A stretch of 64,000 nt of DNA, from positions 12,837-76,836 of the forward strand of contig CAZALI010000001.1 in assembly GCA_964486215.1 (NCBI GenBank), in the 5' to 3' direction. This stretch comes from an uncultured Muribaculaceae bacterium (GTDB lineage: Bacteria; Bacillota_I; Bacilli_A; RF39; UBA660). The notes beneath the pieces are model-generated. The model saw only the letters and a list, made by a program, of their open reading frames with translations, was not told the origin of the DNA and searched no databases. Positions 42,344 through 61,448 of this stretch are shown here, one piece after another. The position numbers and the translations under genes are program-made. The stretch's first letter is position 1. Each line of letters starts with the position of its first letter.

Positions 42344-42419
42344 GCCGAAGTAGCTCAATATCAGAGCAGTCGCGTTGTTTGCGAAAGGTTAGTGGTGTAA
42401 GTCCATCTCTTCGGCACCA
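42344..42419 (+). tRNA. tRNA-like element, 76 nt ending in CCA. It resembles tRNA-Thr(UGU) but has a degenerate T-arm, so it may be a pseudogene or an atypical tRNA.
   Basis: Acceptor stem GCCGAAG/CTTCGGC is perfect. D-arm GCTC..GAGC. Anticodon loop candidate GTTGTTT. The T-stem pairs poorly and there is no TTC motif. Own promoter TGGTATAAT at 42322-42330. Confidence 0.35.
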
Positions 42420-42481: not shown

Positions 42482-42568
42482 GCTTTCGTGGCGGAATTGG
42501 TAGACGCGGTGGACTCAAAATCCACTGGTAGCGATACTGTGCGGGTTCGAGTCCCGCCGAAAGCACCA
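42482..42568 (+). tRNA. tRNA-Leu (anticodon CAA), type II with a long variable arm and encoded CCA.
   Basis: Acceptor GCTTTCG/CGAAAGC. Anticodon stem GTGGA/TCCAC with loop CTCAAAA. T-arm GGGTTCGAGTCCCGC. Promoter TGTTATAAT at 42463-42471. Terminator at 42577-42603. Confidence 0.85.
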
Positions 42569-43869: not shown

Positions 43870-43920
43870 ATTTTTTTTAGATAAGTGCTATGATGAAAAT
43901 ATCAAAGAGAGGTGAAAGGT

Positions 43921-46116
43921 ATGAAAATAGTTAAAAGAGATGGACATATTGTTGATTATAGTCCAGATAAAATTGAGACTGCTATTTCTAAAGCTAATGC
44001 CGAAGTAGCTGAAGAAGAGCGTGTTACTGATGTACAAATAAGAAATATAATTAAGTATATTGAAGGACTTCATAAGAAAAGAATGTTAGTTGAAGATATA
44101 CAAGATATTATTGAAATGAGATTAATGGCACTTGGCAAGTATCAACTTGCGAAGACATATATTACTTATAGATATACAAGAGAATTAGTTAGAAGAAGTA
44201 ATACTACAGATAGATCTATCAAAGAGTTAATCGATGGAGAAAATGAGTATTGGAATACAGAGAATTCTAATAAGAATGCGAAAGTAGTTACTACTCAAAG
44301 AGATTATTTAGCTGGTATTACTAGTACAGATATTACAAGAAGATTCTTACTTCCTGAAGATATCGTCAATGCTCATGATACTGGTATTATCCACTTTCAT
44401 GATGCAGATTATTTTGCACAGAATGCACTACATAACTGTGATTTAATTAACTTAGATGATATGCTTCAGAATGGTACTAATATCAATGGTGTAATGATAG
44501 AGAAGCCTCATAGATTCTTAACAGCTATGACTATTGCTACACAATTAATTACAGCTGTTAGTTCTTCACAATATGGTGGAGCAACTATTACTCTTACACA
44601 CTTAGCTCCATTCGTTAGAGAAAGTAAGAAGAGAATTGAAGAAAAATATAAGAAACGTAAATTAACTAAAGCACAAATAGAAAAGTTTGTAGAGGAAGAT
44701 TTACATAAAGAGATAGTTGATGGAGTACAAACATTCCAATATCAAATTAATTCTATGACTACTACTAATGGTCAAGCTCCATTCTTAAGTGTTGCTATGT
44801 ACTTAGGAGAGACTGAAGAATATAAAGATGAGCTTGCTTTAATAATAGAAGAAGTATTAAAACAAAGACTTCAAGGTATGAAGAATGAACAAGGTGTTTA
44901 TATTACTCCTGCTTTTCCAAAACTTTTATATGTACTTGAGGAAGATAATATTAAACCTAGAAGTAAATATTATTACTTAACTAAATTAGCTGCTAAATGT
45001 ACAGCTAAGAGAATGGTTCCAGATTATATTTCTGAAAAGATGATGTTAAAGTTAAAGAAAAATGAGAAAGGTGTAGGAGAGTGCTATCCTTGTATGGGAT
45101 GTCGTTCATTCTTAACACCTGATAGAACTATGAGTTTAGGAAATATAGCTAAAGCTAAGAACTATGTTAAAGGTAAAGGTAAATACTATGGTAGATTTAA
45201 TCAAGGTGTTGTTACTATTAACTTACCTGATGTAGCTTTATCTTCTGGAAAAGATATGGATTTATTCTGGAAGATATTTGATGAAAGATTAGATCTATGT
45301 CATAGAGCTTTACAAATTAGACATAAACGTCTTTCTAAAGTTACTAGTGATGTAGCACCAATTCTATGGCAATATGGAGCTCTTGCTAGACTTGAGAAAG
45401 GTGAGTCAATACATGAATTATTACATCATGGATATTCTACTATTTCATTAGGATATGCTGGTTTATACGAATGTGTTAAGTATATGACTGGACATTCTCA
45501 TACAGATAATGGAATAGGTAAAGAATTTGGACTAAAAGTAATGCAACATATGAATGATGCTTGTAAGAAGTGGAAAGCTGAAGAGGATATAGATTATTCA
45601 GTATATGGAACTCCAATTGAATCTACTACTTATAAGTTTGCTAAATGCTTAAGAGAGAGATTTGGTAAGATTAAAGGTATTACTGATAGAGATTATATTA
45701 CTAATAGTTATCATGTACCTGTATTTGAAGAGATTGATGCATTTACTAAGTTAAAATTAGAGAGTGAATTTCAACAATTATCACCAGGAGGAGCTATCTC
45801 ATACATAGAGACTCCAAATTTACAAGACAACTTAGATACTGTTATGGAAGTAATAAAGTTTATTTATGACAATATTATGTATGCTGAGTTAAATACTAAG
45901 AGTGATTATTGTCAAGTATGTGGTTATACTGGTGAAATTCAGATAGATGAAAACTTAGAGTGGTATTGTCCACAATGTGGTAATAGAGATCATAATAAAT
46001 TAAATGTTGCTCGTAGGACTTGCGGTTATATTGGTACTAATTTCTGGAATAAAGGTAGAACTCAAGAGATTAAAGAGAGAGTATTACATCTAGATAATAA
46101 AGATGATGATGAATAA
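43921..46116 (+). CDS. nrdD: Anaerobic ribonucleoside-triphosphate reductase.
   Basis: ATP-cone N-terminus, a C-terminal zinc ribbon (CQVCGY...CPQCGN) and the glycyl-radical tail RTCGYIG. Confidence 0.9.
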   Translation: MKIVKRDGHIVDYSPDKIETAISKANAEVAEEERVTDVQIRNIIKYIEGLHKKRMLVEDIQDIIEMRLMALGKYQLAKTYITYRYTRELVRRSNTTDRSIKELIDGENEYWNTENSNKNAKVVTTQRDYLAGITSTDITRRFLLPEDIVNAHDTGIIHFHDADYFAQNALHNCDLINLDDMLQNGTNINGVMIEKPHRFLTAMTIATQLITAVSSSQYGGATITLTHLAPFVRESKKRIEEKYKKRKLTKAQIEKFVEEDLHKEIVDGVQTFQYQINSMTTTNGQAPFLSVAMYLGETEEYKDELALIIEEVLKQRLQGMKNEQGVYITPAFPKLLYVLEEDNIKPRSKYYYLTKLAAKCTAKRMVPDYISEKMMLKLKKNEKGVGECYPCMGCRSFLTPDRTMSLGNIAKAKNYVKGKGKYYGRFNQGVVTINLPDVALSSGKDMDLFWKIFDERLDLCHRALQIRHKRLSKVTSDVAPILWQYGALARLEKGESIHELLHHGYSTISLGYAGLYECVKYMTGHSHTDNGIGKEFGLKVMQHMNDACKKWKAEEDIDYSVYGTPIESTTYKFAKCLRERFGKIKGITDRDYITNSYHVPVFEEIDAFTKLKLESEFQQLSPGGAISYIETPNLQDNLDTVMEVIKFIYDNIMYAELNTKSDYCQVCGYTGEIQIDENLEWYCPQCGNRDHNKLNVARRTCGYIGTNFWNKGRTQEIKERVLHLDNKDDDE

Positions 46117-46619
46117 TGCAATATAATAAGATTAGAAAAATGGATATTTCTAACGGCCCAGGTGTTAGAGTATCTGTTTTCTTCCAAGGCTGTGAATTTC
46201 ATTGTAAGAATTGTTTTAATCCTGAGACATGGGCTTTTAGTGGAGGACATGAATTTACAGATGAGACTATTAATCATATCTTAGATTTATGTGATAGTGA
46301 TCATATAGCTGGTCTTTCTATGTTAGGAGGAGAACCAATGCATCCTAGGAATATAGAAGGTACTACTAAGCTAGCTAAAGCTTTTAAAGAGAGATTTCCT
46401 AATAAGAGCTTATGGTCATGGACAGGATTCTTATTTGATAAAGATTTAAAAGGAAAAGAAGTCTTAAATTATTTAGATGTATTAGTAGATGGACAATATA
46501 AAGATGAACTTCATGATCCTACTTTAAAATGGCGTGGTTCATCTAATCAGAGAGTTATCGATGTACCTAAGTCTTTAAAGGCAAAGAAAGTTGTTTTATA
46601 TAAAGATACTATTTACTAG
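46116..46619 (+). CDS. nrdG: Anaerobic ribonucleotide reductase activating protein.
   Basis: Radical SAM motif GCEFHCKNC; TAATG overlap with nrdD. Confidence 0.85.
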   Translation: MQYNKIRKMDISNGPGVRVSVFFQGCEFHCKNCFNPETWAFSGGHEFTDETINHILDLCDSDHIAGLSMLGGEPMHPRNIEGTTKLAKAFKERFPNKSLWSWTGFLFDKDLKGKEVLNYLDVLVDGQYKDELHDPTLKWRGSSNQRVIDVPKSLKAKKVVLYKDTIY

Positions 46620-46937
46620 TATCTTTTTTTGTAAAATAATATGTAAAGTACTTAAAAGTTTTAAAATAGTATTGACCTTATTCTTATAAAATGTTTTAAT
46701 GTAAGTGTTAGTACACAAGTTTTAGTTATTAACATAATAATTTATAATGATATTAATTATTTATTATGATTGTTAATACGTGCTTATCTGCTTGTCTACT
46801 AGTAGTTACAAATAAAGGAAAATATTATGTGGTAAGTGGCTAACGTAATATGACTAAGAGTTAGCTTCCATTGAACCGGGGTTAATAATGGTTATCAGTC
46901 AATTATTAATCTGACAAAAGTAGAGTTATCTTTTTGA

Positions 46938-46969
46938 GAATAGTGAGGTCATTTAACTATTCTTTTTTT
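46938..46969 (+). terminator. Intrinsic terminator inside the 1-kb gene-free region.
   Basis: GAATAGT / ACTATTC hairpin followed by T7. Confidence 0.5.
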
Positions 46970-46986
46970 ATATAAAAATTTGCACT

Positions 46987-47019
46987 AAAAAAGGATATTC
47001 ATTCAAATATCCTTTTTTT
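46987..47019. terminator. Bidirectional terminator.
   Basis: AAGGATAT / ATATCCTT hairpin flanked by A6 and T7. Confidence 0.5.
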
Positions 47020-47565
47020 CAATAAAGTTAAATAACGTTTCAAGAAACTTTTGATATTCAAATAATATTATAAATATTATTATAAATAACTAGGTAACTT
47101 GATAAATTAAATAACCGAGTTTCCCATTCACTTTATAACATTTGTATTTGGTATTATCAGTACCAAACGCGTGTTACCTTATCTTCGGGGAGTTTTCTTT
47201 CTCTTACTAAGTTACAGTATCTTGACTATAGTAAGTTATTGTTTAAAGTTTGTATTCCAAAACTTCCATAATTAAATGATAATTACTAATTTCTTCTTAT
47301 ATTTCTCGTATATATTAAATTAATAATACATATGGTACTACTATAAGCAAATACTCAGCAATTAATCAATTATTGAATAAATCAACAAAAGGTATAATTA
47401 CAATAGTATTAAACGAAATCGCAATCATGCCGATATCTTTTAGATCAAGATACATTATTAATTTAATATATAATTAGGTTATTGTCAATATTAATTTATG
47501 TTTTTAAAATGATTAGACACTTTATATGTAAAATGTGAAAAAATAGTAAAATTATGCAAAAAATA

Positions 47566-47593
47566 TTGTTAAATTAAATTTTCATGTTATAAT
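47566..47593 (+). promoter_or_regulatory. Sigma-A type promoter with an extended -10 element.
   Basis: TTGTTA, 16-nt spacer, TGTTATAAT. Confidence 0.5.
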
Positions 47594-47658
47594 TTTAATA
47601 GACATAGTAGGAAAGGTGGCATTGAAAATAGCAATATATAATTAAAATAGGTGGTTTG

Positions 47659-48351
47659 ATGAAGAATGAAGTAGAAGTTGATGCAAAAAAAGTATATAAG
47701 AAAAAGATGTTTGTAAAATTAGTTACAATTATCTTCTTAGCTTTACTTATATTACTTTCAATTATTTATTTATTTTTATATATTGTCTATGATGGTGGTA
47801 GGTTTACTATTAGTTTAGATAGGAATTTATCCAATAGAAAAAATGTCTATCTGTCGGAAGATGGTAAATTTGAAAATAAAAGATTCAAATTATCAGCTAA
47901 GACAATAGATTATATGGATAATATTTCTAAGGACTGGTTACCTGAGAATATCGATAAAGGTACTGGCAGCCATAATGGTAATAACTATATTGCTTATAGT
48001 TTCTATTTAGTAAATGCTGGTCATGAGACTGTCCATTATTGGTATGAGATAGATATTGACGATACCATAAAGAGAGTTGATGATGCTATTAGAATTATGA
48101 TAATTCAAAATGGCAAAAGAACAGTATATGCTAAAAGGAATCGTACTACTAAAAAGCCTGAGCCAGATACAGTGGCCTTTCGATCTAAGTCAGTTGTGGC
48201 TTTAAAGCAACGCAAGAAATTTAAACCGAAGAAGAAGGATCGATATACTATTGTCATATGGCTCGAGGGCAATGATCCAGAGTGCAAAAATGATTTAATT
48301 GGTGGAGAAATCAAGATGCATATGGACTTTACAGAAGAGCATATCAAATAA
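47659..48351 (+). CDS. Membrane-anchored protein of unknown function, the first gene of the TasA/SipW-like locus. An alternative TTG start lies at 47656.
   Basis: N-terminal TM segment VKLVTIIFLALLILLSIIYLFLYIV. Basic C-terminal region with locally raised GC content. Confidence 0.45.
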   Translation: MKNEVEVDAKKVYKKKMFVKLVTIIFLALLILLSIIYLFLYIVYDGGRFTISLDRNLSNRKNVYLSEDGKFENKRFKLSAKTIDYMDNISKDWLPENIDKGTGSHNGNNYIAYSFYLVNAGHETVHYWYEIDIDDTIKRVDDAIRIMIIQNGKRTVYAKRNRTTKKPEPDTVAFRSKSVVALKQRKKFKPKKKDRYTIVIWLEGNDPECKNDLIGGEIKMHMDFTEEHIK

Positions 48352-48369: not shown

Positions 48370-49404
48370 ATGGATAAGAAAACTCGTAATTACGAGAAAA
48401 AGAGAAAAAGAAAAATATTTTTATCAATTTTGATGATCTTGTTCGTAGGTATTATTTTAACTGCTAGTACTTACGCATGGTTCACAGCAAACCAAACTGT
48501 AACTGTTAATACTATTGATGTTAACGTAGCAGCTCAAAATGGTTTACTAATATCAACTGATGCTGATTCTTGGAAGACTGTTATTACTAATGAGGATATC
48601 ATAAATACTACTACTAGTGCATCTTCAAAATATAGCACTAATGAAAATATGATTCCATTTGGTACAGGTAGTCAAATTACACCAGTTTCTACTGTTGGTG
48701 AAATTGGTAGTGCTGGAAAACTAGCATTCTTTGCTGGTACACTTTCTAATAATGCCACTACTGATGCTTTAGAGTTAACTGCTAGTGCAGTAACTGAGGC
48801 AAAAGGAACTACTGGTGCTATGGTAGCTTTCGATTTATTCTTTAAAGTTACTGAAGAGTCACAAGTTTATTTAACTCCATCATCTAGCGTTATTAGTGCT
48901 GACCAAGACGATAGAGGATTAAAAAATGCTGCTCGTGTAGGTTGGTTAAGAGAAGGTAATGGTGATTTGAACCAAACTCTAGCTACATGGCAAGGATATC
49001 ATGCTACTAGTACTACAGATGGTGTAGCTAACCCAGCTAATAACTTAATTATTTGGGAACCTAATAGTGAAACTCATACTGCTGCTGGTACTGATAATGC
49101 AAGAAACTATGGTATTACTGATACTACACCAACTGCATTAACTTATGTTGGAGTAAAGGCAGCTATTACTAATGCTGTTCCAGTTGGTAGCCAAGATACT
49201 AACTATTTCGGTAGTGTAAAAGGATTATTTACTACAACTAATTCTACTGGAGTACCTGCTGGTACTAGATGGTTTAAATTAGCACCTGGTGTTACTAAAG
49301 TTAGATTCTATCTATGGATCGAAGGTCAAGACGTTGACTGTGAGAATGCAGCTTCAGGAGCTTCAATTTCTTACAACATGCAGTTCAGTTTATTGAACAC
49401 ATAG
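48370..49404 (+). CDS. TasA/camelysin-family protein with a SipW-cognate signal peptide.
   Basis: Basic N-terminus KKRKRK, a hydrophobic stretch, then STYAWFTANQ, which matches the GT(Y/W)A(F/W)F(S/T)D SipW-cognate class motif. 344 aa, T/A/G-rich. Terminator at 49418-49445. Confidence 0.55.
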   Translation: MDKKTRNYEKKRKRKIFLSILMILFVGIILTASTYAWFTANQTVTVNTIDVNVAAQNGLLISTDADSWKTVITNEDIINTTTSASSKYSTNENMIPFGTGSQITPVSTVGEIGSAGKLAFFAGTLSNNATTDALELTASAVTEAKGTTGAMVAFDLFFKVTEESQVYLTPSSSVISADQDDRGLKNAARVGWLREGNGDLNQTLATWQGYHATSTTDGVANPANNLIIWEPNSETHTAAGTDNARNYGITDTTPTALTYVGVKAAITNAVPVGSQDTNYFGSVKGLFTTTNSTGVPAGTRWFKLAPGVTKVRFYLWIEGQDVDCENAASGASISYNMQFSLLNT

Positions 49405-49459: not shown

Positions 49460-49621
49460 ATGGATAAAGTAAATATTGAAGCATTAAATAGATTGAATAA
49501 TGAAGAGCTTTTATCATTGTATGATAGTATTAATGATCATATAAAATTTTTGAATGAAAATATAATTAAAGCTGAAGAGAAGAAAGAGGAAGAAGAGAGT
49601 AACGAGTCAAATGGAGAATGA
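49460..49621 (+). CDS. Small (53-aa) coiled-coil ORF, not in the supplied track. It overlaps the start of the next gene by 11 nt.
   Basis: RBS AGAGGTGA followed by ATG 49460. Translation MDKVNIEALNRLNNEELLSLYDSINDHIKFLNENIIKAEEKKEEEESNESNGE. Confidence 0.25.
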   Translation: MDKVNIEALNRLNNEELLSLYDSINDHIKFLNENIIKAEEKKEEEESNESNGE

Positions 49622-51269
49622 TGATAAGGTATTTATATTAAAAGAGATTGATATAGATAAAGAACATTTATCTTCTTTTCCTATGGAAACAGATTCTGGT
49701 ACTAAGAAAATAAAAGAAGAATTCCATAAAAAAGCTATTCAAGATAGAAATGCCTATGTTGATATGCAAATTAGGAAATTTACTGAGTATCGGAATGATG
49801 TTTTTAAAATGCTTAAAGCTAGAGCTCTTAGTATATTTCCAAATAATAGTATAAATGCATATGAAAACATTAATAATCACTTAGCTTTATTGCAAGATGC
49901 TGTAGTGGATACTAATAAATATGTTGATAACTACTATAAACTTGGATTCTCTTATCTAATAGAAGATATTGATGATAATGCTTCATTATTATTACTTAAT
50001 AAACACCTAAAAACATTTATTTCTAAATTTAATGAAATGGGTATAGAACTAAAAAAAGAAGATTTTAATTATACTATGTTTACGGCAAACTATATGAAAG
50101 AATTTTTAGATTCTTTATCTATGAATGATAATGATTTCTCTATGAAGATGAGGACTACTTTTGATTCTATATATTGGGAATGTCCTACTATTATTTATCA
50201 AATTAAGTTAAATTTACTTTATATTTTAGATAAATATAAGAAAGAATTAGACAAGTATTTAGCTGATAAAAATGCTAAATTATTAAATAATTTAGGCTGT
50301 GATAGGAATACTATTTTAGATGAGTATCTAAAGAAGAGATTAGAAGCAGGAGTTACTTTTGCGAGAGATGAATATAAGAATTTAGAAGTATTTTTGAATG
50401 GATCTAAGAATATAGAAGATTATTTACCTAGTAGTGAAATAAGAAGCAAAAATTATAATACTTATTGTAATGGTAATTTTGATGATTTAACTCCTGAAGA
50501 TAAGAATAAGTTTGATTTTGCTATGGCAGATTTACATAATACTTTAGTTGTTTTAAAGAAGTATTATACTTATGAACCTATTGTTAAGGACTTATTAAAG
50601 AAATATAAAGAAAAAGATAAAGTTAAGACTGAATTTGCTAATAACAATAAAGAAATAGATAAAGAAGATAAGAAGAGATTAGCTATTAATAAAGAATTTG
50701 CTAGAGCTAATGGAGAAGGATTCTTAGCTAAATATAATTCTGATAAGATTAAGAATGCTAAAGTTAAGATGAATGATGAAATTAGTAAGATTAAACAACT
50801 TTATCTTAAGAAATTTGGTTATGAAATTAGTATTAATTTAGATAAATATATAAAAGAATCTTCTACTTTGTATGATTTATTTATGGCATGTACTTCATCA
50901 TTTAATTATTTAAGTAATCAATTAAAGACTATTTATAAAGATGAGGAAGATTTTAATATTGAAAAAGAAGTTAATAATTTCTATAGATTTATCTTTAATC
51001 CTAGTAATGTATTCTTAAGGAAGAGTACTTGCTTTAGTGATTCTAAGATTGAAACTATTGTGAGTGATAAGTATCGTTTGTTGGGATTAAATATCAGTGA
51101 TAGTGATGTTAGTAAAGCATCTATTGATAGTACTATGGAAACCGTTGCTTATATCAATTTGATTCAAAACATTAATAAAGGAAGATTGTCTTTAGAAAAC
51201 ATTGCATTCATCTGCAATGTCAATAAAATAGAAGAATTAAAACCTGAAAAAGAAGCAGAAATGTTATAG
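49611..51269 (+). CDS. Hypothetical 552-aa protein, predicted cytoplasmic, with no recognised domain.
   Basis: K/E/D-rich ORF. Terminator GACCAC/GTGGTC at 51268-51293. Confidence 0.5.
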   Translation: MENDDKVFILKEIDIDKEHLSSFPMETDSGTKKIKEEFHKKAIQDRNAYVDMQIRKFTEYRNDVFKMLKARALSIFPNNSINAYENINNHLALLQDAVVDTNKYVDNYYKLGFSYLIEDIDDNASLLLLNKHLKTFISKFNEMGIELKKEDFNYTMFTANYMKEFLDSLSMNDNDFSMKMRTTFDSIYWECPTIIYQIKLNLLYILDKYKKELDKYLADKNAKLLNNLGCDRNTILDEYLKKRLEAGVTFARDEYKNLEVFLNGSKNIEDYLPSSEIRSKNYNTYCNGNFDDLTPEDKNKFDFAMADLHNTLVVLKKYYTYEPIVKDLLKKYKEKDKVKTEFANNNKEIDKEDKKRLAINKEFARANGEGFLAKYNSDKIKNAKVKMNDEISKIKQLYLKKFGYEISINLDKYIKESSTLYDLFMACTSSFNYLSNQLKTIYKDEEDFNIEKEVNNFYRFIFNPSNVFLRKSTCFSDSKIETIVSDKYRLLGLNISDSDVSKASIDSTMETVAYINLIQNINKGRLSLENIAFICNVNKIEELKPEKEAEML

Positions 51270-51358
51270 ACCACAAAAGTGGTCTTTTTTTTATGAATTT
51301 TTATTGGTTATTTACTTGTATTATGGTATAATGTTAATAGAATAATTGGAGTGTGCAT

Positions 51359-52618
51359 ATGAAGAGTGTGAAGAAAATTTTAAAGTATATAGCGTATGCA
51401 TTTTTATCATTTTTGATATTACTATGCGTATATACTTTTGTAGTAACAGATATTTTAAAGAAAGACCATGTAAATGTGTTTGGATATACATATTTTGTGG
51501 TAGCTAGCGGTTCTATGTCAGGTACTATTGAAGTTAATGATATTATCTTTGTTAAGCTTACTAAGAATGTCAAAGTAGATGATATTATTTCTTATAAAAA
51601 TAGTTCTGGAGAAATAATAACTCACCGTATTGTTGATAAGAGTGGTAATAGACTTATTACTAAAGGTGATGCCAATAATAGTCAAGATGATCCAATAAGT
51701 AAAAATGATGTACTTGGCAAGATTATTTGGATATTATCACCTAAAGTAATACTTGAATTTATCGCAGTATGCTTAATTGTATTTATTGGACTTGCTCTTA
51801 TTAATTTTGATAGGATATTTAAACGATATGTTGTTAAGAATGATAATACAGAGACAAATGATTTTGATAGAGAAGTTTTACCACAAGAAGTATTCTCTAG
51901 TCCAAAAGATAGAAAAGATTATAAACATAGTGGTTTAACTGTTACTATTCCATTGAAAGAGATAGATAATATCCGTAAGATACAGGATGAAGAGAAACAA
52001 GAAGATGAAGATGGAGTAGAGATATTAACAGAAGAAGAGGTATTAGATTTAGATAGTAATTCTATTGTTACTATCAGTAATACACAGAAAGAGAAAGAAA
52101 AAGAAATAGTTGATTTAGTTACTAATTTACTTAGAGTTAAGAATGATGAGTTAGCAACTTCTAGAATTAATAAGAAATGGTTACTTAAATATCAATTTAT
52201 TTATAAAATATCTAATATCATATTACTTGGTGATACTAAGAGTTTATTTGAATCTGTTGAACATCCTTCGTTTAAGGAAGTATATGATTATGACTTAGAG
52301 AAGATAGGCTTATATGAGAATTTACGAAATAAAATCTATGAAATGCCTATATATGTTTTCTTAAAAATATTATTTATAGCTATTTTATATAATGATGATG
52401 CTTTCTTTGACGGAGTATTCAAGATTATGAAATATAAAATTATGATTGATAAGAATAATCATTTTAGAACTATAAAGAATGATAATTATTCAAGAAGACA
52501 ATTAAAAGGATTAATTACATTTATGGAAAAGATTTCTAAACAATATGATAATAAGCATGTATTTGAATTAGATAAGATAGAGAGAATGACTAAGATTAAA
52601 AATTACGTTAACGATTAG
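51359..52618 (+). CDS. SipW-type (archaeal/eukaryotic-type) signal peptidase I fused to a ~270-aa C-terminal extension.
   Basis: N-terminal TM segment, then VVASGSMSGTIEVNDIIFVKL (Ser motif SGSM), ITHRIVDK (His) and ITKGDANNSQDDP (GDxN...D). A second TM segment (KIIWILSPKVILEFIAVCLIVFIGLALINF) is followed by a long additional domain. Promoter TGGTATAAT at about 51323-51331. Confidence 0.6.
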   Translation: MKSVKKILKYIAYAFLSFLILLCVYTFVVTDILKKDHVNVFGYTYFVVASGSMSGTIEVNDIIFVKLTKNVKVDDIISYKNSSGEIITHRIVDKSGNRLITKGDANNSQDDPISKNDVLGKIIWILSPKVILEFIAVCLIVFIGLALINFDRIFKRYVVKNDNTETNDFDREVLPQEVFSSPKDRKDYKHSGLTVTIPLKEIDNIRKIQDEEKQEDEDGVEILTEEEVLDLDSNSIVTISNTQKEKEKEIVDLVTNLLRVKNDELATSRINKKWLLKYQFIYKISNIILLGDTKSLFESVEHPSFKEVYDYDLEKIGLYENLRNKIYEMPIYVFLKILFIAILYNDDAFFDGVFKIMKYKIMIDKNNHFRTIKNDNYSRRQLKGLITFMEKISKQYDNKHVFELDKIERMTKIKNYVND

Positions 52619-52627
52619 GAGAAGAAT

Positions 52628-55600
52628 ATGAAACTTACTAAAAGAAAACTTACACATATAATATTTTCATTGTTCATGTTAATGATACTTTCTTTTAGTA
52701 TTGTTTCTTTTTTTTCTAGAAGTACTTTAAGTGATATTAATTATGTTAAATGGGATGGAAAAGAAGTAGCTACTTCTTTTGCTGGAGGTAATGGTACCAA
52801 AGAGAATCCATATAAAATTAATAATGGCGGACAATTAATGTACTTTAAGAAGATGGTAGAAGAAGAGAATAATTTTCTTGATAAATACTATGTTCTTGGA
52901 GCAAACATTGATTTAGATGATCATGAAATTACTCCTATTGGTACTGATACTAAGTACTTTAGTGGCTCTTTAGATGGAAAAGGATATACTATTACTAATA
53001 TTAATATCAAAGAAGGCAAAGAAGATAATCAAATAAACTATTATGGTTTATTTAATAAAATTAAAGGTACTATTAATAATCTTAATATAGATGAAATTAC
53101 TATTAATCCTGAAAGTGAAGATCCTGTTATTATAGGATCTTTAGCTGGTAAAATAGAAGAAGAATCTAGTATTAAGAATATTTCTATTCATAAGAGTAAT
53201 ATTTATTTAACTAATACTACTAATGATAAGTCTAATAATATAGCTTTATTTAGTGGAATAATAGAAGAGAAGAGTACTATTACTAATATTAGTGTATTTG
53301 GTAAATTTTATTCTCCTTATAGTGATAATGTTTCTATTATTAGTAATAAATTAGATAGTAATATTAAAAACGCTATTATGAAAGTTGAATATGAAGATGG
53401 TATTAATGATTTAGCTACTTTTGGTAATATAGGTGATGAAGTAGAAACTACTAATATATTTAATTTTATTAATAAAGATAGAATTGTTATTAAGAATGAA
53501 ACATATACTGCTAGTGAAGTAGTTAATGTATTTAATGATGAAATACTTGATAATTACTATTGGGATTATGATGAAGATTTTTCTATTTATGTAAGAGATA
53601 ATAAAATAGATAATACTCCTAAAGTTAGAAGTTTTAGTTTTACTCCTAGTGGTACTATAGCATTACATGATAGTGGAGTATCTACTGCGGATAAGACTGT
53701 TTATATTAATGATTTAACTAGTGATTATAACTACTACATGGGTCTTAATTATACTACTACTAGTAATGGAAATGTTCCTACTGGATCTAGTAATAATACT
53801 TATACTGATAGTAATTTAGTAGCAGTATATATGGCTTATAGAGGAGAAAGCATTAACGATGATGGAAAAATTGGATATGTATCTCTTAATGAACAAATAT
53901 CTGATTTTATATATTATAAGTATTATGTAATAGAAAATGGTTATATAACTATTCCTCTAATAGATAATCCATATGCTGATAGACCTAATGATATGGCTTT
54001 TAATGGATGGATAACTGATTATCCTAATGCAGTTGTTAGTTATGATGCTGATACTTATACTAGATATGTTAAGATACCGGCAACAACTGGTCCTATATCA
54101 ATTACTATGTATGCTACATGGACAGAAGCTACTGTTGTTAACGCTAGTGTTAGTAGTAATAATTTAAGTACTACTGGACTTAAACCTATTAGTATGCAAC
54201 CAATTATTACTAGGACTCCTAATTATAATGGTTATACTTTCCCAACTCTATATACAAGAGGTTCTGTAACTAGTGAAGCTAATAGAAATGGAGCTGTTCC
54301 TTATCCTGCTGGAGCAGTTGATGATAGAGGAAATAGTTTAAGTAACTCTATGTGTGAACCTATTGTTACTGGTAGTGGCTGGAATAGGAGATATAGTTCA
54401 CAAACATGTTATTACTATATGCAAGCTGATACTACTAATATTGATCCAAATGAGTCTTATTATCAAATAGGTAATAATGGTAGCATGACTTCTTATACAT
54501 TACCTACACCTACTGGATATGATTATGAAAGAGTTATAGATGTTGGTGATAGTGTAGCTGGTTTCTATAAGAGACATACGGAGGCTGGTAGTTTAGTTGG
54601 TTATTATAATAATAGAGGAGTTCAATATACTTCTGGTAGTTGTAGTAGTAATTGTGAGTATTATGAGTTAGTACAGTTTGATGAGAATAATGTCATGCAA
54701 GAGACGGATTCAGAAACACTTTATTATTACTTAGTTACTCGTGATACTAATATTGCCTTTTTAAATAGTAATATTCAAGGATTTACTAATAGTGTTCCAG
54801 TTACGGTTACAGGTATTAATAATGGTGTTGATCATAGTAACTATGAGATTCAAGTTAATACGCGTAGTATAAGAGCTGGAGCTGATTTAAGAGTTGAATG
54901 GGCTCTTGTCAATAGAAACAGTTATTCTACGAATACTAGTGGTCCATCTGATAGTAATACTAATAATATTTATGGTGAGTATCATAACTTGAAAATTGGT
55001 AGAGGAATAGAAATTGAAACTACAACAACGACAGAATGGCAATATATTGATGGTAGATATCAACAAGTTCAAGTTACAAGAAAATATTTGACTGCTACTT
55101 CTGTTGTTGGAGGAAGCTCTAGTGCTGCAGGTGGTAGTGGTAGTCCTGAAAAATATAATCTAATCGTAGAATCAGGCTATTATAATGTTTTGAGTGCTGT
55201 TAGTACAACTAGTTCTTCATCTACTTATTATACAAATGCTGTTGCGACATATGGTTGTGATTTTGATAGAGTAAATAATGCTGATAACTCTAAACTAGGA
55301 GTTTATTATACAGCTGCTTCTAGTTGGGGCGGTAGCATTTATAGTTCTTCTAGTTCTACTGATACAGAGTTATTCTCAACACAAATTGTTAAGAGTGGAA
55401 CATTTGGTGAAGTTGAGAGTGAAGCTGCATCTGGTATATATGCTGGAGGATTAAATGGTGGTACTATTTATGCTCCTGCTAGACTTATTATTGAAGGTGG
55501 AGATTTATTTAATGTTAATGGTGGACCATTAATTAGTTCTAATAGAAAAACTAAGAATATGATTTATATTAATATGAAAGGCGGAAATGCTGACTTTATA

Positions 55601-58600
55601 TTTGGTGGTGCTGCCTTATCACAAACTTATGGTAATCGTATTATCAATGTTACTGGTGGACAAGTTAATTACTCTGTATTTGGAGGATCTAATGGTGTCG
55701 AAGGTGGTAACGGTGATGGTACTTTGGATGGAGATTCTTTCGTATATGTTGGTGGTAATGCCAAGATTGGAGACGACTCTATTACTGATACTAAGTGGGG
55801 AGTTGAATCAGGCTCTGTATTTGGTATAGGTAATGGTAATTCTTCATATGATACAATTGGTTCTACTAATAATTCTAATGTTATTATAGCGGGTTCTGCT
55901 ACTATAAAGACTAATGTCTATGGTGGTGGTAACTATGGTGCTGTTGGTGTTAAAGGAAATACATCTACAACTACTACTAATGTTAAGATAATCGGTGGAG
56001 ATGTTAAAGGTAGTGTCTATGGTGGAGGTAATAATGCTGGATCTGGTACTTCTTCATATACTTCTACAGTAAACATTACTATGGATGGTGGTACTGTAGA
56101 AAAGAATGTCTTTGGTGGAAGTAGAACTAAAGGTATTATTTATGGTTCTACTAACGTTAATATAAATCAAGGTGTTGTTGAAAAAGACGTATACGGTGGC
56201 GGTGAAGGTGGTTATGAAGATAGTAATACTCCTGGTACATACGTTGCTCGTGACGTTAATGTAGTTATTGGTGATACTAATACAACTACTAGTAATTTAA
56301 CTATTAAAGGTAGTGTCTATGGTGGTAGTGCTTATGGTTCTGTAAATGGAAGTTCTAATAATGCATCTGCTACAGCTACATATAAGACAAATGTTACAGT
56401 CAATGGTGGAAAAATTGAAACCAATGTCTATGGTGGAGGTAAAGGTGATTCTACTCATACTCCAAAAGAATTTGGTGATGTTACTGTTACTATCGAAGGC
56501 GGTAGTATTGGTGACGTATATGGCGGTAATGATCAAGCTGGTTCTCCACAAAGAGGCGATGTTGTTAACTTAAATGGTGGAACAATTGCCAATGGATTTG
56601 GTGGAGGTAATAATACTGGGCAAACAACTACTAATATTAATCTAGCTGGTACAACTGTTACTGGTAACTTATATGGTGGTTCTAATAATGGTGGTATTGT
56701 TACTACTTCTAATGTTCATGTTACAAGTGGTTCTGTTACTAACGTATATGGTGGTAATAACTTAAATGGTTCAACGACAACAACTAATGTCATTATTGAT
56801 GGTGGTACTTTCTCAGGTGATGTTTATGGTGGAGGTAACCAAGCTAATTCTAGTACTTCAAATGTCACAATAAATGCTAGTACAAATCACAATGTCTATG
56901 GTGGAGGTAACCAAGCAGGTGTTACTACTCAAACTAATGTAAATATAAATGCTGGTACAATAGTTGATGTATTTGGTGGATCTAATAGTTCTGGAGAAAT
57001 CAATAATACTCATGTTATTGTATCTGGTACTGGTGCCAAGAACATTCAAAATGTCTATGGTGGTAATAATTTAGGTGGTACTACTGATAATGCTATATCT
57101 GTTATTGAAGTAAGCAGTGGTACAATTGGAAACATCTATGGTGGAGGTAATAAAGTTGGACTTGATACTTCTAATGTAACAGTTACAGGTGGAACAATTA
57201 CTTCTGTATATGGTGGTTCTAATACTAGCGGAGATCTTAATGAATCTAATGTAACTATTGGATCTACTACTAGTCAAGTTACGGTACAAGATGTCTATGG
57301 TGGTAATAACTTAGGTGGTGTTACAGATGATGCCAATATCGTTGTTACAAATGCTACTGTAAATAACTTATACGGTGGAGGTAATCAAGCTGCCGTTGGT
57401 TCTACACATGTAGAGGTAGTTGATAGTACTATTCAGAATATCTATGGTGGAGGTAACCAAGCTGGTGTTACTGGTAATACATATTTGGATGTTGATAACT
57501 CTACTGTTTCTACTAACATTTATGGTGGAGGTAATCAAGGAGCAGTAGGTGGAAATACTGAAGTTTATATTACTGATGGTACAATTGGTGGTAGTTGTTA
57601 TGCCGGTGGTAATGGTTCTACAGCTATCGTAAGTGGTAATACTCTTATTACTGTTGATGGTGATACTGTTGTTGGTAGTGCATCATCTACTGGAACAGAG
57701 GGTAGCGTCTTCGGTGGTGGTAATGCTGCTGCTACTGGTAGTTCATCTACTAATAATAGTGTTGCTACGGTAAATATTGTTGGCGGACATATTTATGGTA
57801 ACGTATATGGTGGTGCTAATACTTCAGTTGTTTATGGCGAAACTCATACAAATATTGGTACTAATGCTGTAAATGTATCTGGTTTAGACGAAGCTGATTT
57901 AATAATTGAAGGAACTGTCTTCGGTGGTGGTGAAGCTAATGCTTCTGGCAGTGATAGTTACGACTTCTCATTCATTTCTGTCACAAGAGGAATTGATGTT
58001 AATATAGATGGTTTGAATTATCTTACTCATGGAAATAGATTTGAACTTAATGGATCTATCTTTGGTTCAGGTAATGCTTCATCTTCTGCTGGTACTAGTG
58101 AAGTTTATATTAGAAATCTAGGTACGAGAACTAATCCTAGTTCAAATGTATCAATACAGAGAGCAGATAAAGTCGTGATTGATAATAGTGTTATTGAACT
58201 TTCTGGTACTGTTGATACTACAAATGATTATTCAAATATTAAATATTCATTGAACAGAATTGAAGACTTTATTATTAAAAATAATACGGTACTTCTATTA
58301 AAAGAAAATGCCAACCTTCTACAATCATTTAGATCTATGGTTGGTACTGATGGTAACGAAGTATTAGCAACTGTTAATATAAATGATGATACACAAACAG
58401 TTACTAAGAATGTTGACAATAGACTTTATATGTTAGCTGATAAGAACTTGAATGTTGCTACTAACCAGGATGCTACTGCTTATGGTGAAGTTAAAGGTAT
58501 GACATTCCTTGGAATGTATACTATGGGTACTACTGGTAGTAGGAGGTATGGTGTCTATAGTGATACATTTGATTATGGTTCAGCATCTGATGCTGGTGAT

Positions 58601-60718
58601 ATGATCATTGGTGGTACAAGTGTTAAAGGTTCACATCTCGTAAATCATGATATAACTAAAGATGGTTTCTATTCTAACTATCTAGATGAAGAGAATAACT
58701 ATTCTGAAGTTAGAGTAGCTTACGTAGAACCTCAACCACCAGCTTCAAACTTCTATATATGGTCTATTGGTGAAGAGACAATTAGTTATGAATTTACAAT
58801 GACGGCTTCTAAGTATGGTTCATTAGGTACATATACACTTTCTATGTCAGAATTTGCTGATGGTAATACAATCTTCAATGTCAGTGGATTTAATACTGAA
58901 GGTTTAGCAAGTGGTGTATCATTAATTGATTCTGATACTGTACCTAAGATTGCTCATACACAAGCAGAAGCTAATAGTGTCTTTGGTTTATCAATGAAAG
59001 CTGAGACACGTGAGTGGACTAGTTATGGTACAACAAAACTATTAAGTCGTGATAATGGTGATACGACTGGTACAGATAGTTATAAAACAGACTCTCAGTC
59101 TATAGCACCAACAATGATGTTCTATTTCTACCATGCTAAGAATATTGCTCTTACAGCAGAACTTGGAACAGCAGTATTAACACTACAAGCTATGGTACCA
59201 ATAAATGAGATAGAGTATGATATCCAGTTAATTACTATTACGATTAACTTAGAGGCACAAGAATACGATGACGAAGATGCTTACGATGCTTCAATATCTT
59301 ACGATAAAAAGTATGAGATGCCTTCAGCTACACCAGTTAATATTACTAATAGGAGCCAATTCACAGCATATTATTCTATGATTGCTATGCCTGAAAGCTT
59401 TAGTGCTTTCTATGGTAGAGATGGAGACTATTATCATGCTTTAGTTACAGATGCAGCTTTACCTGTTGGAACTGAGATTACAATGATTGATAATAGTATA
59501 GAGGGTCATCCTGAAGAATATTATTTAACAATAGATCAGGCTCGGTATAATGCATCGACAGCTCAACTTAGTGCTGATAGTGAAATTAGTTATAAACTAT
59601 CGGAATTCATAAAGATGGATAGTACTAGTACTACTAATAAATATAGTGACGTTCAAATGAATCAAGTTTACTTTGACGATGATTATAATCTAGTTATGGA
59701 AGAGTTCTTATTCATCTTTGACTTTAAGAACACGACAGTTTCTGATGGAGTATTAAATAAATATATGTTATTTGAATTACGTAATGGTGAGGATAGAACA
59801 ATGTATCACGTTGTTACTCCACGTCGACAATTTATGTATTACAATACATATGCAGCATCTAACTCAGTACTTGTTGGTTCAATTACTCCTGAACGTTACT
59901 TGTATCAAGATATTGATAGTACAACGCCAATTTCAGCAGAAGTTGACTACGACGAAACTTCTGGACGTGAGTCAATTATTGATACTAACTATGAGAGTAG
60001 TTCTATGGGACTTAACTTAGCTATTCTAGACCACAGTGGTAACCAAGTAAGTTCTAGTATGCTTATTGGTACATCAGTTACTATTAATAATACTGAGTAC
60101 TATGCTGATAGCGATGGTGTATTTAGAATAAAACTAGCTGGAAAAGTATCTAATATTAATGGTACGATGACATTGAAAACAGATAAGAGCCTGCCAGTAG
60201 GTGAATATACATTCAGATTTACTTTGTTTGCTTCTAACGATGGTCTTCATAATTCTGATCCAGATAGAGCAACAGTATATAATAGAACAGTAACGGTTGT
60301 TGGTAGTAATAACTCTATTGTAGTTACTGGTGATGATAAAAACAAAGTAGTAGACGGAGTAACTTCACTTAATGAATTAGGAGCTAAATACAATAATTAT
60401 AGTATTAAGTATGTATCAGCTTTGTCTAATCCTAACTTTAGAGTTTCTCTATATAAACGTGATATTACTGATAGCGTTACTACTAATTATACTGAAGTAC
60501 CATTTAATTCATTGTTTACTGATACATTAACTGATGCGACTGGTGGAACTGCTTATGAAAAAATTGTTCCTACAGGTACTTCACCGTTTAATGTTAGATA
60601 TAATTTTGCTGATAATTTAACTTCTGGAACTTATAAAATAGTATTTAAATTATATGATGGTAATCAATTAGTAGATAGTGATAATGAATTTATTATTGTT
60701 AAGAAGAGAACTCCTTAA
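52628..60718 (+). CDS. Giant (2696-aa) secreted or cell-surface protein with a central β-solenoid-like tandem repeat region.
   Basis: RBS AGGAGAAG. N-terminal signal anchor. The central region contains more than 30 repeats of about 25 aa with the motif x(V/I)(Y/F)GG(G/S)N followed by N(V/I)x(V/I)xxG(T/S)I. Confidence 0.8.
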   Translation: MKLTKRKLTHIIFSLFMLMILSFSIVSFFSRSTLSDINYVKWDGKEVATSFAGGNGTKENPYKINNGGQLMYFKKMVEEENNFLDKYYVLGANIDLDDHEITPIGTDTKYFSGSLDGKGYTITNINIKEGKEDNQINYYGLFNKIKGTINNLNIDEITINPESEDPVIIGSLAGKIEEESSIKNISIHKSNIYLTNTTNDKSNNIALFSGIIEEKSTITNISVFGKFYSPYSDNVSIISNKLDSNIKNAIMKVEYEDGINDLATFGNIGDEVETTNIFNFINKDRIVIKNETYTASEVVNVFNDEILDNYYWDYDEDFSIYVRDNKIDNTPKVRSFSFTPSGTIALHDSGVSTADKTVYINDLTSDYNYYMGLNYTTTSNGNVPTGSSNNTYTDSNLVAVYMAYRGESINDDGKIGYVSLNEQISDFIYYKYYVIENGYITIPLIDNPYADRPNDMAFNGWITDYPNAVVSYDADTYTRYVKIPATTGPISITMYATWTEATVVNASVSSNNLSTTGLKPISMQPIITRTPNYNGYTFPTLYTRGSVTSEANRNGAVPYPAGAVDDRGNSLSNSMCEPIVTGSGWNRRYSSQTCYYYMQADTTNIDPNESYYQIGNNGSMTSYTLPTPTGYDYERVIDVGDSVAGFYKRHTEAGSLVGYYNNRGVQYTSGSCSSNCEYYELVQFDENNVMQETDSETLYYYLVTRDTNIAFLNSNIQGFTNSVPVTVTGINNGVDHSNYEIQVNTRSIRAGADLRVEWALVNRNSYSTNTSGPSDSNTNNIYGEYHNLKIGRGIEIETTTTTEWQYIDGRYQQVQVTRKYLTATSVVGGSSSAAGGSGSPEKYNLIVESGYYNVLSAVSTTSSSSTYYTNAVATYGCDFDRVNNADNSKLGVYYTAASSWGGSIYSSSSSTDTELFSTQIVKSGTFGEVESEAASGIYAGGLNGGTIYAPARLIIEGGDLFNVNGGPLISSNRKTKNMIYINMKGGNADFIFGGAALSQTYGNRIINVTGGQVNYSVFGGSNGVEGGNGDGTLDGDSFVYVGGNAKIGDDSITDTKWGVESGSVFGIGNGNSSYDTIGSTNNSNVIIAGSATIKTNVYGGGNYGAVGVKGNTSTTTTNVKIIGGDVKGSVYGGGNNAGSGTSSYTSTVNITMDGGTVEKNVFGGSRTKGIIYGSTNVNINQGVVEKDVYGGGEGGYEDSNTPGTYVARDVNVVIGDTNTTTSNLTIKGSVYGGSAYGSVNGSSNNASATATYKTNVTVNGGKIETNVYGGGKGDSTHTPKEFGDVTVTIEGGSIGDVYGGNDQAGSPQRGDVVNLNGGTIANGFGGGNNTGQTTTNINLAGTTVTGNLYGGSNNGGIVTTSNVHVTSGSVTNVYGGNNLNGSTTTTNVIIDGGTFSGDVYGGGNQANSSTSNVTINASTNHNVYGGGNQAGVTTQTNVNINAGTIVDVFGGSNSSGEINNTHVIVSGTGAKNIQNVYGGNNLGGTTDNAISVIEVSSGTIGNIYGGGNKVGLDTSNVTVTGGTITSVYGGSNTSGDLNESNVTIGSTTSQVTVQDVYGGNNLGGVTDDANIVVTNATVNNLYGGGNQAAVGSTHVEVVDSTIQNIYGGGNQAGVTGNTYLDVDNSTVSTNIYGGGNQGAVGGNTEVYITDGTIGGSCYAGGNGSTAIVSGNTLITVDGDTVVGSASSTGTEGSVFGGGNAAATGSSSTNNSVATVNIVGGHIYGNVYGGANTSVVYGETHTNIGTNAVNVSGLDEADLIIEGTVFGGGEANASGSDSYDFSFISVTRGIDVNIDGLNYLTHGNRFELNGSIFGSGNASSSAGTSEVYIRNLGTRTNPSSNVSIQRADKVVIDNSVIELSGTVDTTNDYSNIKYSLNRIEDFIIKNNTVLLLKENANLLQSFRSMVGTDGNEVLATVNINDDTQTVTKNVDNRLYMLADKNLNVATNQDATAYGEVKGMTFLGMYTMGTTGSRRYGVYSDTFDYGSASDAGDMIIGGTSVKGSHLVNHDITKDGFYSNYLDEENNYSEVRVAYVEPQPPASNFYIWSIGEETISYEFTMTASKYGSLGTYTLSMSEFADGNTIFNVSGFNTEGLASGVSLIDSDTVPKIAHTQAEANSVFGLSMKAETREWTSYGTTKLLSRDNGDTTGTDSYKTDSQSIAPTMMFYFYHAKNIALTAELGTAVLTLQAMVPINEIEYDIQLITITINLEAQEYDDEDAYDASISYDKKYEMPSATPVNITNRSQFTAYYSMIAMPESFSAFYGRDGDYYHALVTDAALPVGTEITMIDNSIEGHPEEYYLTIDQARYNASTAQLSADSEISYKLSEFIKMDSTSTTNKYSDVQMNQVYFDDDYNLVMEEFLFIFDFKNTTVSDGVLNKYMLFELRNGEDRTMYHVVTPRRQFMYYNTYAASNSVLVGSITPERYLYQDIDSTTPISAEVDYDETSGRESIIDTNYESSSMGLNLAILDHSGNQVSSSMLIGTSVTINNTEYYADSDGVFRIKLAGKVSNINGTMTLKTDKSLPVGEYTFRFTLFASNDGLHNSDPDRATVYNRTVTVVGSNNSIVVTGDDKNKVVDGVTSLNELGAKYNNYSIKYVSALSNPNFRVSLYKRDITDSVTTNYTEVPFNSLFTDTLTDATGGTAYEKIVPTGTSPFNVRYNFADNLTSGTYKIVFKLYDGNQLVDSDNEFIIVKKRTP
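55400..58100 (+). repeat. Tandem degenerate repeats (period ~72-84 nt) encoding the YGG(G/S)N β-solenoid units.
   Basis: Near-identical blocks (a/g)tctatggtgg(a/t)(g/a)gtaa recur at about 56018, 56318, 56427, 56895, 57052, 57135, 57293, 57441 and 57521. Confidence 0.7.
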
Positions 60719-60770: not shown

Positions 60771-61448
60771 ATGATAAAAAGAATTTTTGGGGTAATATGG
60801 GATATATTAGAAATTTTAATAATAATTTATGTTATATTCATAACAGCTTGTATATTATTTAGAAACGATTATGGATTTACACAGTTTGGTGATTATACTT
60901 TAGCTAGTCTTGGTAAAAATGATGCTAAATATATCAAGAATACTAATAATGGCGATCTATTAATAGTTAAGAAGAGTAAAAATATAGCTGTTGGTGATTA
61001 TATTTATTACTATGCTGTTATTGATGAAAGCTATGTAATTAGAACAGGTGTTGTACAAGGAGTTACTAAAGATGATTATAATTCTTTATACAATATAAAG
61101 ACTAAGATTTCTAATGATAAGACTGTTAAGATAAGCGTTAATCATAAACGTGTTCTTGGCAAAGCTGCTAATAATTATGCTAAGTTAGGAGATATTCTTA
61201 AATTCTTAGAGACAAGACTTGGTTTCTTAGTATTTGTACTTCTTCCTATTATGCTTGTATTTGTATATCAAATATATATATTCGTAGTTTTATTAAATTA
61301 TGAAAAGAAGGAAACTTTGAATAAAATTATTAGTACTAATAATAAAGAAGCTTTAAATAAACCAGAAGTAAAAGAAGAAAAACCTGTAGAAAAAGAAGTT
61401 CCAAAAGAAGAAGAGAAAAAAGATGATGAAGATATAGAAGTTTTATAA
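60771..61448 (+). CDS. Bitopic membrane protein, possibly a catalytically degenerate SipW-like paralogue.
   Basis: Architecture is TM segment, β-domain, TM segment, acidic tail, as in the SipW-like gene. Short local similarity FGDYT...NGDLLIVKK compared with FGYTY...NDIIFVKL, but no SGSM Ser or HR His. Confidence 0.35.
   Translation: MIKRIFGVIWDILEILIIIYVIFITACILFRNDYGFTQFGDYTLASLGKNDAKYIKNTNNGDLLIVKKSKNIAVGDYIYYYAVIDESYVIRTGVVQGVTKDDYNSLYNIKTKISNDKTVKISVNHKRVLGKAANNYAKLGDILKFLETRLGFLVFVLLPIMLVFVYQIYIFVVLLNYEKKETLNKIISTNNKEALNKPEVKEEKPVEKEVPKEEEKKDDEDIEVL

Follow-up and report, generated by a model that had tools for sequence, protein, structure and literature searches.

Why should a signal peptidase that serves surface proteins carry a large folded domain on the cytoplasmic side of the membrane? 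Dedicated SipW-type peptidases are small enzymes that mature the subunits of biofilm fibres, and the one hint of a wider role is the short cytoplasmic tail of Bacillus subtilis SipW. The stretch of DNA analysed here, 64,000 nucleotides of contig CAZALI010000001.1 (assembly GCA_964486215.1; hereafter the window, G+C content 28%), encodes on its forward strand a 419-residue peptidase of the S26B type with a folded domain in that position. A catalytically competent-looking peptidase dedicated to a conserved surface-structure cluster is well supported by the sequence, and the folded domain (C-domain) is, by its predicted model, compact and autonomous. We tentatively propose that the C-domain is a docking or assembly module, which would organise the peptidase and two other products of the cluster, the pseudo-peptidase D225 and the cytoplasmic protein C552, at the membrane via acidic-hydrophobic tails. 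The features of the peptidase gene and its product are as follows.

51359..52618, forward strand: peptidase gene, 419 codons plus stop, S26B signal peptidase with cytoplasmic C-domain
51386..51448, forward strand: transmembrane helix 1, about residues 10–30, from hydropathy (helix 2–32 in the AlphaFold model)
51449..51736, forward strand: extracytoplasmic peptidase domain, residues 31–126, from TIGR02228, invariant residues, the SEC11A/C alignment and the S24/S26 fold
51512–51514 (tct), 51623–51625, 51668–51670 and 51686–51688, forward strand: catalytic-site codons of Ser52, His89, Asp104 and Asp110
51737..51808, forward strand: transmembrane helix 2, about residues 127–150, from hydropathy (helix 128–148 in the AlphaFold model)
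51809..52084, forward strand: acidic cytoplasmic linker, predicted to be disordered, residues 151–242
51932–51955, forward strand: linker motif GLTVTIPL, consensus [ST]GLT[VI]xIP[LI]xE[IL], residues 191–202
52001–52027, forward strand: linker motif EDEDGVEIL, acidic-hydrophobic E-[IV]-E-[IV]-L, residues 215–223
52085..52615, forward strand: C-domain, residues 243–419, compact eight-helix cytoplasmic domain predicted by AlphaFold

The reading frame opens with an ATG at 51359 and closes with the stop codon at 52616–52618. Judged by its sequence, the N-terminal part is an S26B signal peptidase of the archaeal/endoplasmic-reticulum type, and every family criterion that could be tested on it agrees. 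The family model TIGR02228 (sigpep_I_arch) covers residues 15–132 with 64.6 bits (cut-off 51.85), and the bacterial-type model TIGR02227 stays below threshold (27.5 bits, cut-off 47). All three motifs named by the original prediction are present, SGSM at residues 50–53, THRIV at 88–92 and GDAN...D at 103–110 (GDANNSQD). A profile of 17 homologues found SEC11C and SEC11A as the sole meaningful sequence matches in the PDB, with GSM, HR and GDxN..D aligned; the Ser block falls on the SEC11 GSM, the His block on IVHRV of SEC11A/C and the Asp block on GDNNxVDD of SEC11. Eukaryotic SEC11A/SEC11C and the archaeal Sec11-type peptidases are among the closest known counterparts of the protein.

Conservation supports the same assignment. 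Homologues near and far (alignments A1 and A5) all retain G51, S52, M53, T88, H89, R90, G103, D104, N106 and D110, and the whole of I87-T88-H89-R90 is likewise invariant in alignment A1, with His, not Lys, as the general base. By analogy with the SipW triad Ser47/His87/Asp106 (PMC8767453), the triad here would be Ser52/His89/Asp110, the acidic residue being assigned to D110 on that analogy. In the full-length AlphaFold model the N-terminal domain adopts the S24/S26 fold, with structural matches to the C-terminal domains of LexA and lambda cI, to Streptococcus pyogenes SipA (4n31) and to Escherichia coli signal peptidase. We infer from these features an enzymatically active peptidase.

Two strong hydrophobic segments stand out in the Kyte–Doolittle profile, at about residues 10–30 (2.5) and 127–150 (3.1). 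Because the first is preceded by the Lys-rich N-terminus MKSVKKILKY and the second is directly followed by the basic stretch NFDRIFKRYVVK, the protein fits a predicted topology with both termini inside and the active site outside. This positive-inside pattern agrees with the original prediction of a cytoplasmic C-terminal part. The claim that the reading frame continues well past the second helix also held, with different dimensions: since that helix ends near residue 150 on hydropathy, the peptidase part spans about 150 residues and not ~185, and the part behind it about 269 and not ~235.

The likeness to SipW is one of type only. Both proteins are S26B enzymes with Ser/His/Asp in place of a Ser/Lys dyad (PMC8767453), both have two transmembrane helices and a cytoplasmic C-terminus, and both are encoded in a cluster with a presumed substrate that bears a SipW-type signal peptide (TIGR04088); an independent function of the cytoplasmic C-terminal part is documented for SipW. 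Orthology to Bacillus SipW, however, did not survive comparison with the equivalog model NF046067 (SigPepSipWBacil; 56.6 bits, cut-off 190). SipW has ~190 residues with a tail of ~20, whereas the window peptidase has 419, of which 269 are cytoplasmic and include the eight-helix domain. Its neighbours, unlike those of SipW, are not detectable TasA/camelysin (Peptidase_M73) homologues, and its cluster adds a giant surface protein, a 552-residue cytoplasmic protein and a dead peptidase paralogue.

The cytoplasmic linker and C-terminal domain

The cytoplasmic part consists of a flexible tether and a folded unit. In the full-length AlphaFold model residues 158–241 are disordered (predicted local distance difference test, pLDDT, 30–44, all below 50), and residues 156–262 hold 27 Asp+Glu vs 16 Lys+Arg. 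Predicted alone, from a 44-sequence alignment that includes members at 27–40% identity, residues 235–419 form a compact eight-helix domain with a pLDDT of 89.3 and a predicted template-modelling score of 0.88. Nine residues (F305, E307, Y311, Y327, F350, D351, K355, K358 and F369) are invariant across these 44 diverse members, and conservation of the C-domain is at least equal to that of the peptidase part. Residues 329–345 were considered as a third transmembrane helix and rejected, their hydropathy being ~1.8 vs 2.5 and 3.1 for the two accepted helices; in the globular model they form a high-confidence core helix, and Arg, Glu or Gly stand there in distant homologues.

Searches for relatives of the C-domain found it only in its own family. 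The window protein and the 44 family members gave no Pfam or NCBIfam match in this domain, and Foldseek returned no match among 350,542 PDB chains (best E 0.63, TM-score <0.3) or in BFVD (best E 0.58). An exhaustive HMMER search with residues 156–419 through 1.84 billion cluster representatives recovered 47 clusters only (50% identity), and in nearly all full-length members the C-domain match lies C-terminal to ~150–210 residues of the same peptidase. A relationship to C552 was discarded (hhalign probability 0.1%; nothing by BLASTP). The literature searched contained nothing relevant on a signal peptidase in RF39 or on a SipW with a C-terminal extension. As far as these libraries and this literature show, the C-domain, the D225 pseudo-peptidase family, C552 and the tail motif are undescribed.

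The fusion is widespread. A search of 5.8 billion proteins gave more than 1000 matches, and the 120 matches listed all have 99–100% query coverage, 57–84% identity and a length of 413–432 residues. A scan of one genome per GTDB species found the full architecture in 61 loci at 43–71% identity, all of them in uncultured gut or rumen metagenome-assembled genomes (MAGs) labelled Bacilli, Tenericutes, Mycoplasmatota or Erysipelotrichaceae; "Mycoplasma sp. CAG:877" is among these 61 species of small-genome gut Bacilli, and we take the MAGs that carry the fusion to belong to the GTDB order RF39. The window product itself matches GenBank entry MBQ6477469.1 ("MAG: signal peptidase I [Bacilli bacterium]") in every residue and occurs identically on three contigs. 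Public annotation of the homologues reads "signal peptidase I" or "S24/S26 family peptidase" only.

These data also bear on whether the protein is an artefact, either a fusion of two genes created by a sequencing frameshift or an overlooked stop, or a remnant without function. One locus does carry the two parts as separate genes (L067, 2–1561): a short peptidase ends 12 residues after its second transmembrane helix, a second gene encodes a segment of low complexity rich in Pro, Gln and Tyr together with the linker and C-domain, and the giant gene described below follows. This split could be a true gene fission or an error in assembly, as it comes from a single metagenomic contig. The other observations argue against an artefact. 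The architecture is unbroken in all the matches listed, in independent assemblies and in the 61 species, the identical protein recurs on three contigs, and the C-domain, with its many invariant residues, is under strong purifying selection. The region 51900–51950, which the original prediction had singled out for a frameshift check, encodes the conserved GLTVTIPL, and the alignment runs through it unbroken. Because homology is continuous through the linker and relatives share the same full-length architecture, a frameshift or missed stop is excluded; the fusion proposed from the sequence is real and conserved, and we give the artefact explanation as a whole a negligible chance.

The conserved gene cluster

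The peptidase gene lies within a cluster whose order (A231, B344, a small open reading frame, C552, peptidase, giant, D225) is kept in nearly all of 68 related loci, as judged by tblastn in those loci that are long enough to show order. Besides the peptidase gene, the window holds the following members.

47659..48351, forward strand: A231, N-terminally anchored membrane protein
48370..49404, forward strand: B344, secreted protein with a SipW-type signal peptide
49460..49621, forward strand: small open reading frame of 53 residues (EELLSLYDSINDHIKFL...), overlapping the start of C552
49611..51269, forward strand: C552, 552 residues, ending ...EAEML
52628..60718, forward strand: giant surface protein, 2696 residues
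60771..61448, forward strand: D225, catalytically dead paralogue of the peptidase domain

B344 is the obvious candidate substrate, since it bears a SipW-type signal peptide and has a near-invariant N-terminus. The signal-peptide assignment is borderline: TIGR04088 gives B344 20.0 bits (cut-off 19), and in seven of nine orthologues it matches at the corresponding N-terminal position with 14.3–19.9 bits, one of them above cut-off. The N-terminus consists of a stretch rich in Lys and Arg followed by LTASTYAWFTAN(K/Q/R)TVTV, and is near-invariant in 56 loci. From its sequence B344 is the probable substrate and fibre subunit of this system. A231 is the best-conserved protein of the cluster, with 61–75% identity in the main clade and 50% in the divergent P0153-type loci L065 and L066. 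Its N-terminal anchor looks uncleaved: YLFLYIVYDGGRFT. A231 and B344 share the C-terminal motif W[LI]EG[NQ]D..C.N and weak BLAST similarity and look like paralogues, possibly an anchor and fibre-subunit pair by analogy with TapA/TasA. Membership of either in the TasA/camelysin family was rejected, as neither Pfam nor PDB sequence searches support it: A231, B344 and 10 members of the B344 family gave no Pfam match of any kind at E up to 1, and no PDB sequence match was found.

The small reading frame has a counterpart of 30–46 residues at the same position in relatives. A counterpart with the same EELL..Y motif precedes the C552 homologues even in the distant clusters L069 and L071, which suggests, at the level of sequence, a real and translationally coupled micro-protein. 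C552 itself shows no transmembrane segment and matches no known family.

The giant protein is encoded immediately behind the peptidase. A gap of 9 nt, which includes the giant gene's own ribosome-binding site, separates its start from the peptidase stop, and the two genes are translationally close-coupled in most loci. At its N-terminus the protein shows a hydrophobic anchor or signal and a conserved start, KWDG..VA.SF..GNGT..NPY; no LPXTG motif and no Pfam or NCBIfam family was found in it. Repeats of the VYGG(G/S)N type extend over long stretches, and the C-terminus ends ...Y[VI]IVKK.

D225 repeats the layout of the peptidase, with a transmembrane helix, a beta-rich domain, a second transmembrane helix and an acidic, charged tail that ends ...KKDDEDIEVL. 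The relationship to the N-terminal domain of the peptidase is seen by profile–profile comparison only (hhalign probability 89.6%, E 1.9e-6, 103 columns), BLASTP giving nothing significant, and the Ser and His positions are not conserved. D225 is kept 3′ of the giant gene in 53 of the 68 loci. In L023 and L032 the peptidase and D225 stand alone after nrdD, with A231, B344, C552 and the giant gene absent within 10 kb; D225 thus accompanies the peptidase also in loci that lack the other members of the cluster. As a pseudo-peptidase D225 has a parallel in SipA of S. pyogenes, which belongs to the bacterial (P-type) signal peptidase lineage. SipA/LepA is a non-catalytic protein of the S26 fold, encoded with pilins and a sortase and essential for pilus polymerisation (PMC4049620). 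D225 is a comparable pseudo-peptidase, as is P0135, a peptidase-dead homologue next to a sortase gene. SipA, however, has no cytoplasmic domain, and the window peptidase, unlike SipA, keeps all its catalytic residues.

A different explanation of the C-domain is that it is a cytoplasmic enzyme or export chaperone acting on precursors before or during translocation. Anchored by the peptidase at the point of exit, it could, for example, keep the 2696-residue protein export-competent or modify it. Beyond the immediate 5′ position of the peptidase gene and the close translational coupling in most loci, invariant polar and aromatic residues (E307, D351, K355, K358, Y311 and Y327) would suit such a role, as would a short contig of just 1.3 kb (L068) on which a protein with one transmembrane helix and the C-domain, without a peptidase, is encoded directly 5′ of a giant-protein gene. 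Yet the domain resembles no known enzyme or chaperone family or fold, and P0135 sits in its sortase context with no giant gene adjacent. The C-domain is also not bound in cis to the giant gene, as L023 and L032 have none nearby. We consider this role unlikely, though worth keeping in view.

Homologues of C552 at 24–26% identity lead to related clusters in other lineages. The L071 cluster comprises an A231-like gene, three B344-like genes, a small open reading frame, and C552-like, giant-like (1204 residues) and D225-like genes, together with a SipW-like peptidase of 703 residues (L071, 19208–21319). The ~530-residue cytoplasmic extension of that peptidase contains no C-domain by hidden Markov model and no Pfam family; an EAL-like domain suspected by eye at its end received no support from Pfam. 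Because this extension is large and unrelated to the C-domain, a large cytoplasmic module on the dedicated peptidase seems to be recurrent in this type of cluster, with the C-domain as one solution. The L071 protein likewise suggests a general need for a cytoplasmic module on this peptidase, a point in favour of the enzyme or chaperone reading.

Candidate roles of the C-terminal domain

Architectural variants, which serve as a kind of Rosetta stone, show which parts of the protein can be separated. In P0168 (L074, 8515–10233) and likewise in P0137, two tandem C-domains are followed by a C-terminal CxxC...CxxC zinc ribbon in an otherwise unchanged cluster, and P0124 has a Pro-rich insertion of 200 residues within the linker. 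P0135 (L073, 5099–6232) has lost the GSM serine and the histidine and keeps the C-domain; its gene is flanked by one for a sortase and one for a secreted protein whose C-terminus resembles a sorting signal. Together with the split genes of L067 and the peptidase-free protein of L068, this variant indicates that the C-domain is an autonomous module whose function requires neither a covalent link to the peptidase nor its catalysis. Across all variants the domain stays associated with genes for the assembly of surface proteins.

Such independence would also suit a signalling function. The original prediction had suggested a sensing or regulatory module, in which case the C-domain would relay the secretion state or contact at the surface to the cell, by sequestering and releasing a regulator or through its own release, as an enlarged version of the regulatory tail of SipW. 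The 20 C-terminal cytoplasmic residues of B. subtilis SipW activate matrix genes independently of peptidase activity (PMC8767453, citing Terra et al. 2012; PMC13082335). That precedent is joined by the cytoplasmic position of the C-domain in the predicted topology, its retention in the peptidase-dead homologue, the existence of apparently soluble or separately encoded forms, the zinc ribbon at the end of one variant and the slightly basic character of residues 263–419 (27 Lys+Arg vs 22 Asp+Glu). The domain has no homology to the SipW tail, however, and the 44 members contain no helix-turn-helix or other DNA-binding, kinase, nucleotide-binding or other known signalling family; the predicted model gave no fold match. 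Nor does the conserved cluster include a regulator gene; the sole constant neighbours are structural or secreted proteins and the pseudo-peptidase. Assembly or docking is favoured over sensing because of this strict synteny with structural and secreted proteins, the tail motif set out below and the split and peptidase-dead variants, and we would give a regulatory role perhaps a minor share of the probability.

The tail motif connects three cytoplasmic segments of cluster proteins, which share the short sequence D/E-I/V-E-I/V/L-L.

61410–61445: D225 tail
51243–51266: C552 tail
52001–52027: peptidase linker

Orthologues of D225 end [DE][DE][IV][ED][IVL]L-COOH. A strict regular expression matched 39 of 52 D225 sequences, 6 of 60 C552 sequences and none of 380 unrelated open reading frames of the same loci; the loose form [DE][IVLM][LIV]-COOH matched 43, 38 and 8 of the same sets, respectively. 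The internal form of the motif is present in 53 of 63 peptidase linkers. That three cytoplasmic segments share one short motif would be explained most simply by a common binding partner, and the C-domain would be the obvious folded candidate.

If the C-domain is indeed a docking or assembly module, the system could work as follows. An active, dedicated S26B peptidase, its active site facing outward between two transmembrane helices, would most likely remove the SipW-type signal peptide of B344 and possibly process other secreted products of the cluster. Behind the second helix, the acidic disordered tether and the lineage-specific eight-helix domain, both cytoplasmic, would keep the peptidase together with D225, its dead paralogue, and cytoplasmic C552 in one complex at the membrane. 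Processing would thereby be coupled to the export and assembly of a surface structure that may comprise a B344-type fibre and the 2696-residue adhesin-like protein. The candidate docking signal is the acidic-hydrophobic motif with which D225 ends; C552 ends with a looser form of it, and the linker has an internal copy. We prefer this account, at a confidence slightly short of even, and the whole of the docking role is deduced rather than observed.

Several observations weigh against it. AlphaFold placed no linker motif on the C-domain, the motif lying in the disordered segment of residues 158–241 (pLDDT 30–44). Co-variation between the linker motif and the D225 tail is weak (counts 32/5/11/4, odds ratio ~2, in loci that are phylogenetically non-independent), too weak to be used as evidence. 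The P0153-type subfamily keeps the invariant residues of the C-domain with a D225 that has no acidic tail and a linker that has no motif. L023 and L032 retain the peptidase and D225 with no A231, B344, C552 or giant gene in the surrounding 10 kb. Finally, the invariant E307, D351, K355 and K358 could equally well form a catalytic or ligand-binding site.

A more specific and bolder version would make the C-domain the receptor of a hitherto unrecognised cytoplasmic targeting code, binding the ...D-I-E-V-L-COOH tails of D225 and C552, with the linker as an internal decoy, in a complex dedicated to export. TPR domains, which clamp the EEVD tails of Hsp70 and Hsp90, offer a comparison. We hold this version to be improbable as it stands. 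If it were true, an active subunit, a dead paralogue and a cytoplasmic scaffold would together export a TasA-like fibre and a 2700-residue adhesin, and reduced-genome gut bacteria would possess an analogue, built from different parts, of the multi-subunit eukaryotic signal peptidase complex. SEC11 itself lacks a large cytoplasmic domain and functions as one member of a hetero-oligomer whose non-catalytic subunits are unrelated. The window peptidase, in contrast, carries its additional mass as a covalent extension, and D225, the accessory membrane protein of this cluster, is its own paralogue.

Whichever role applies, the C-domain is conserved, lacks described relatives and persists where the peptidase is inactive or encoded by a gene of its own; it therefore represents a new domain family, one suited to curation, for example as a Pfam domain of unknown function. 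The cluster is a conserved and entirely unannotated surface-structure locus in a widespread uncultured lineage of the human and animal gut. It gives a concrete starting point for asking by what means reduced-genome gut bacteria adhere to their hosts or to other cells, and whether signal peptidases of bacteria can function as parts of dedicated complexes of several subunits.

Expression signals and flanking genes

Three signals lie between C552 and the peptidase gene.

51268..51285, forward strand: terminator-like hairpin AGACCAC-AAAA-GTGGTCT with a T-run, directly 3′ of the C552 gene
51304..51332, forward strand: promoter-like site, read off the sequence, with TTGGTT, a 17-nt spacer and an extended -10 element TGgTATAAT (51324–51332)
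51348..51351, forward strand: ribosome-binding site GGAG, 7 nt 5′ of the peptidase ATG

The promoter-like site, which was not among the listed matches of a consensus promoter scan, suggests from sequence a separate transcription start for the peptidase and giant-protein genes. An in-frame GTG at 51353 lies two codons 5′ of the peptidase ATG.

Downstream of D225, a 201-residue protein with several transmembrane segments (61500–62105; weak YciC-family match, 31 bits against a cut-off of 227) and a 577-residue secreted protein with a Ser-rich stalk and a C-terminal transmembrane anchor (62180–63913) are encoded by genes that are not conserved in related loci. Upstream, ~1 kb separates nrdG from the first cluster gene (46620–47655); this interval has no open reading frame of at least 60 residues and no Rfam match at the gathering threshold, and contains several promoter-like sites. 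Two tRNA genes lie at 42344–42416 and 42482–42565. An nrdD-like gene (734 residues) and nrdG (TIGR02491, 180 bits) occupy 43912–46619 just 5′ of the cluster, and the same nrdD neighbourhood recurs in L032.

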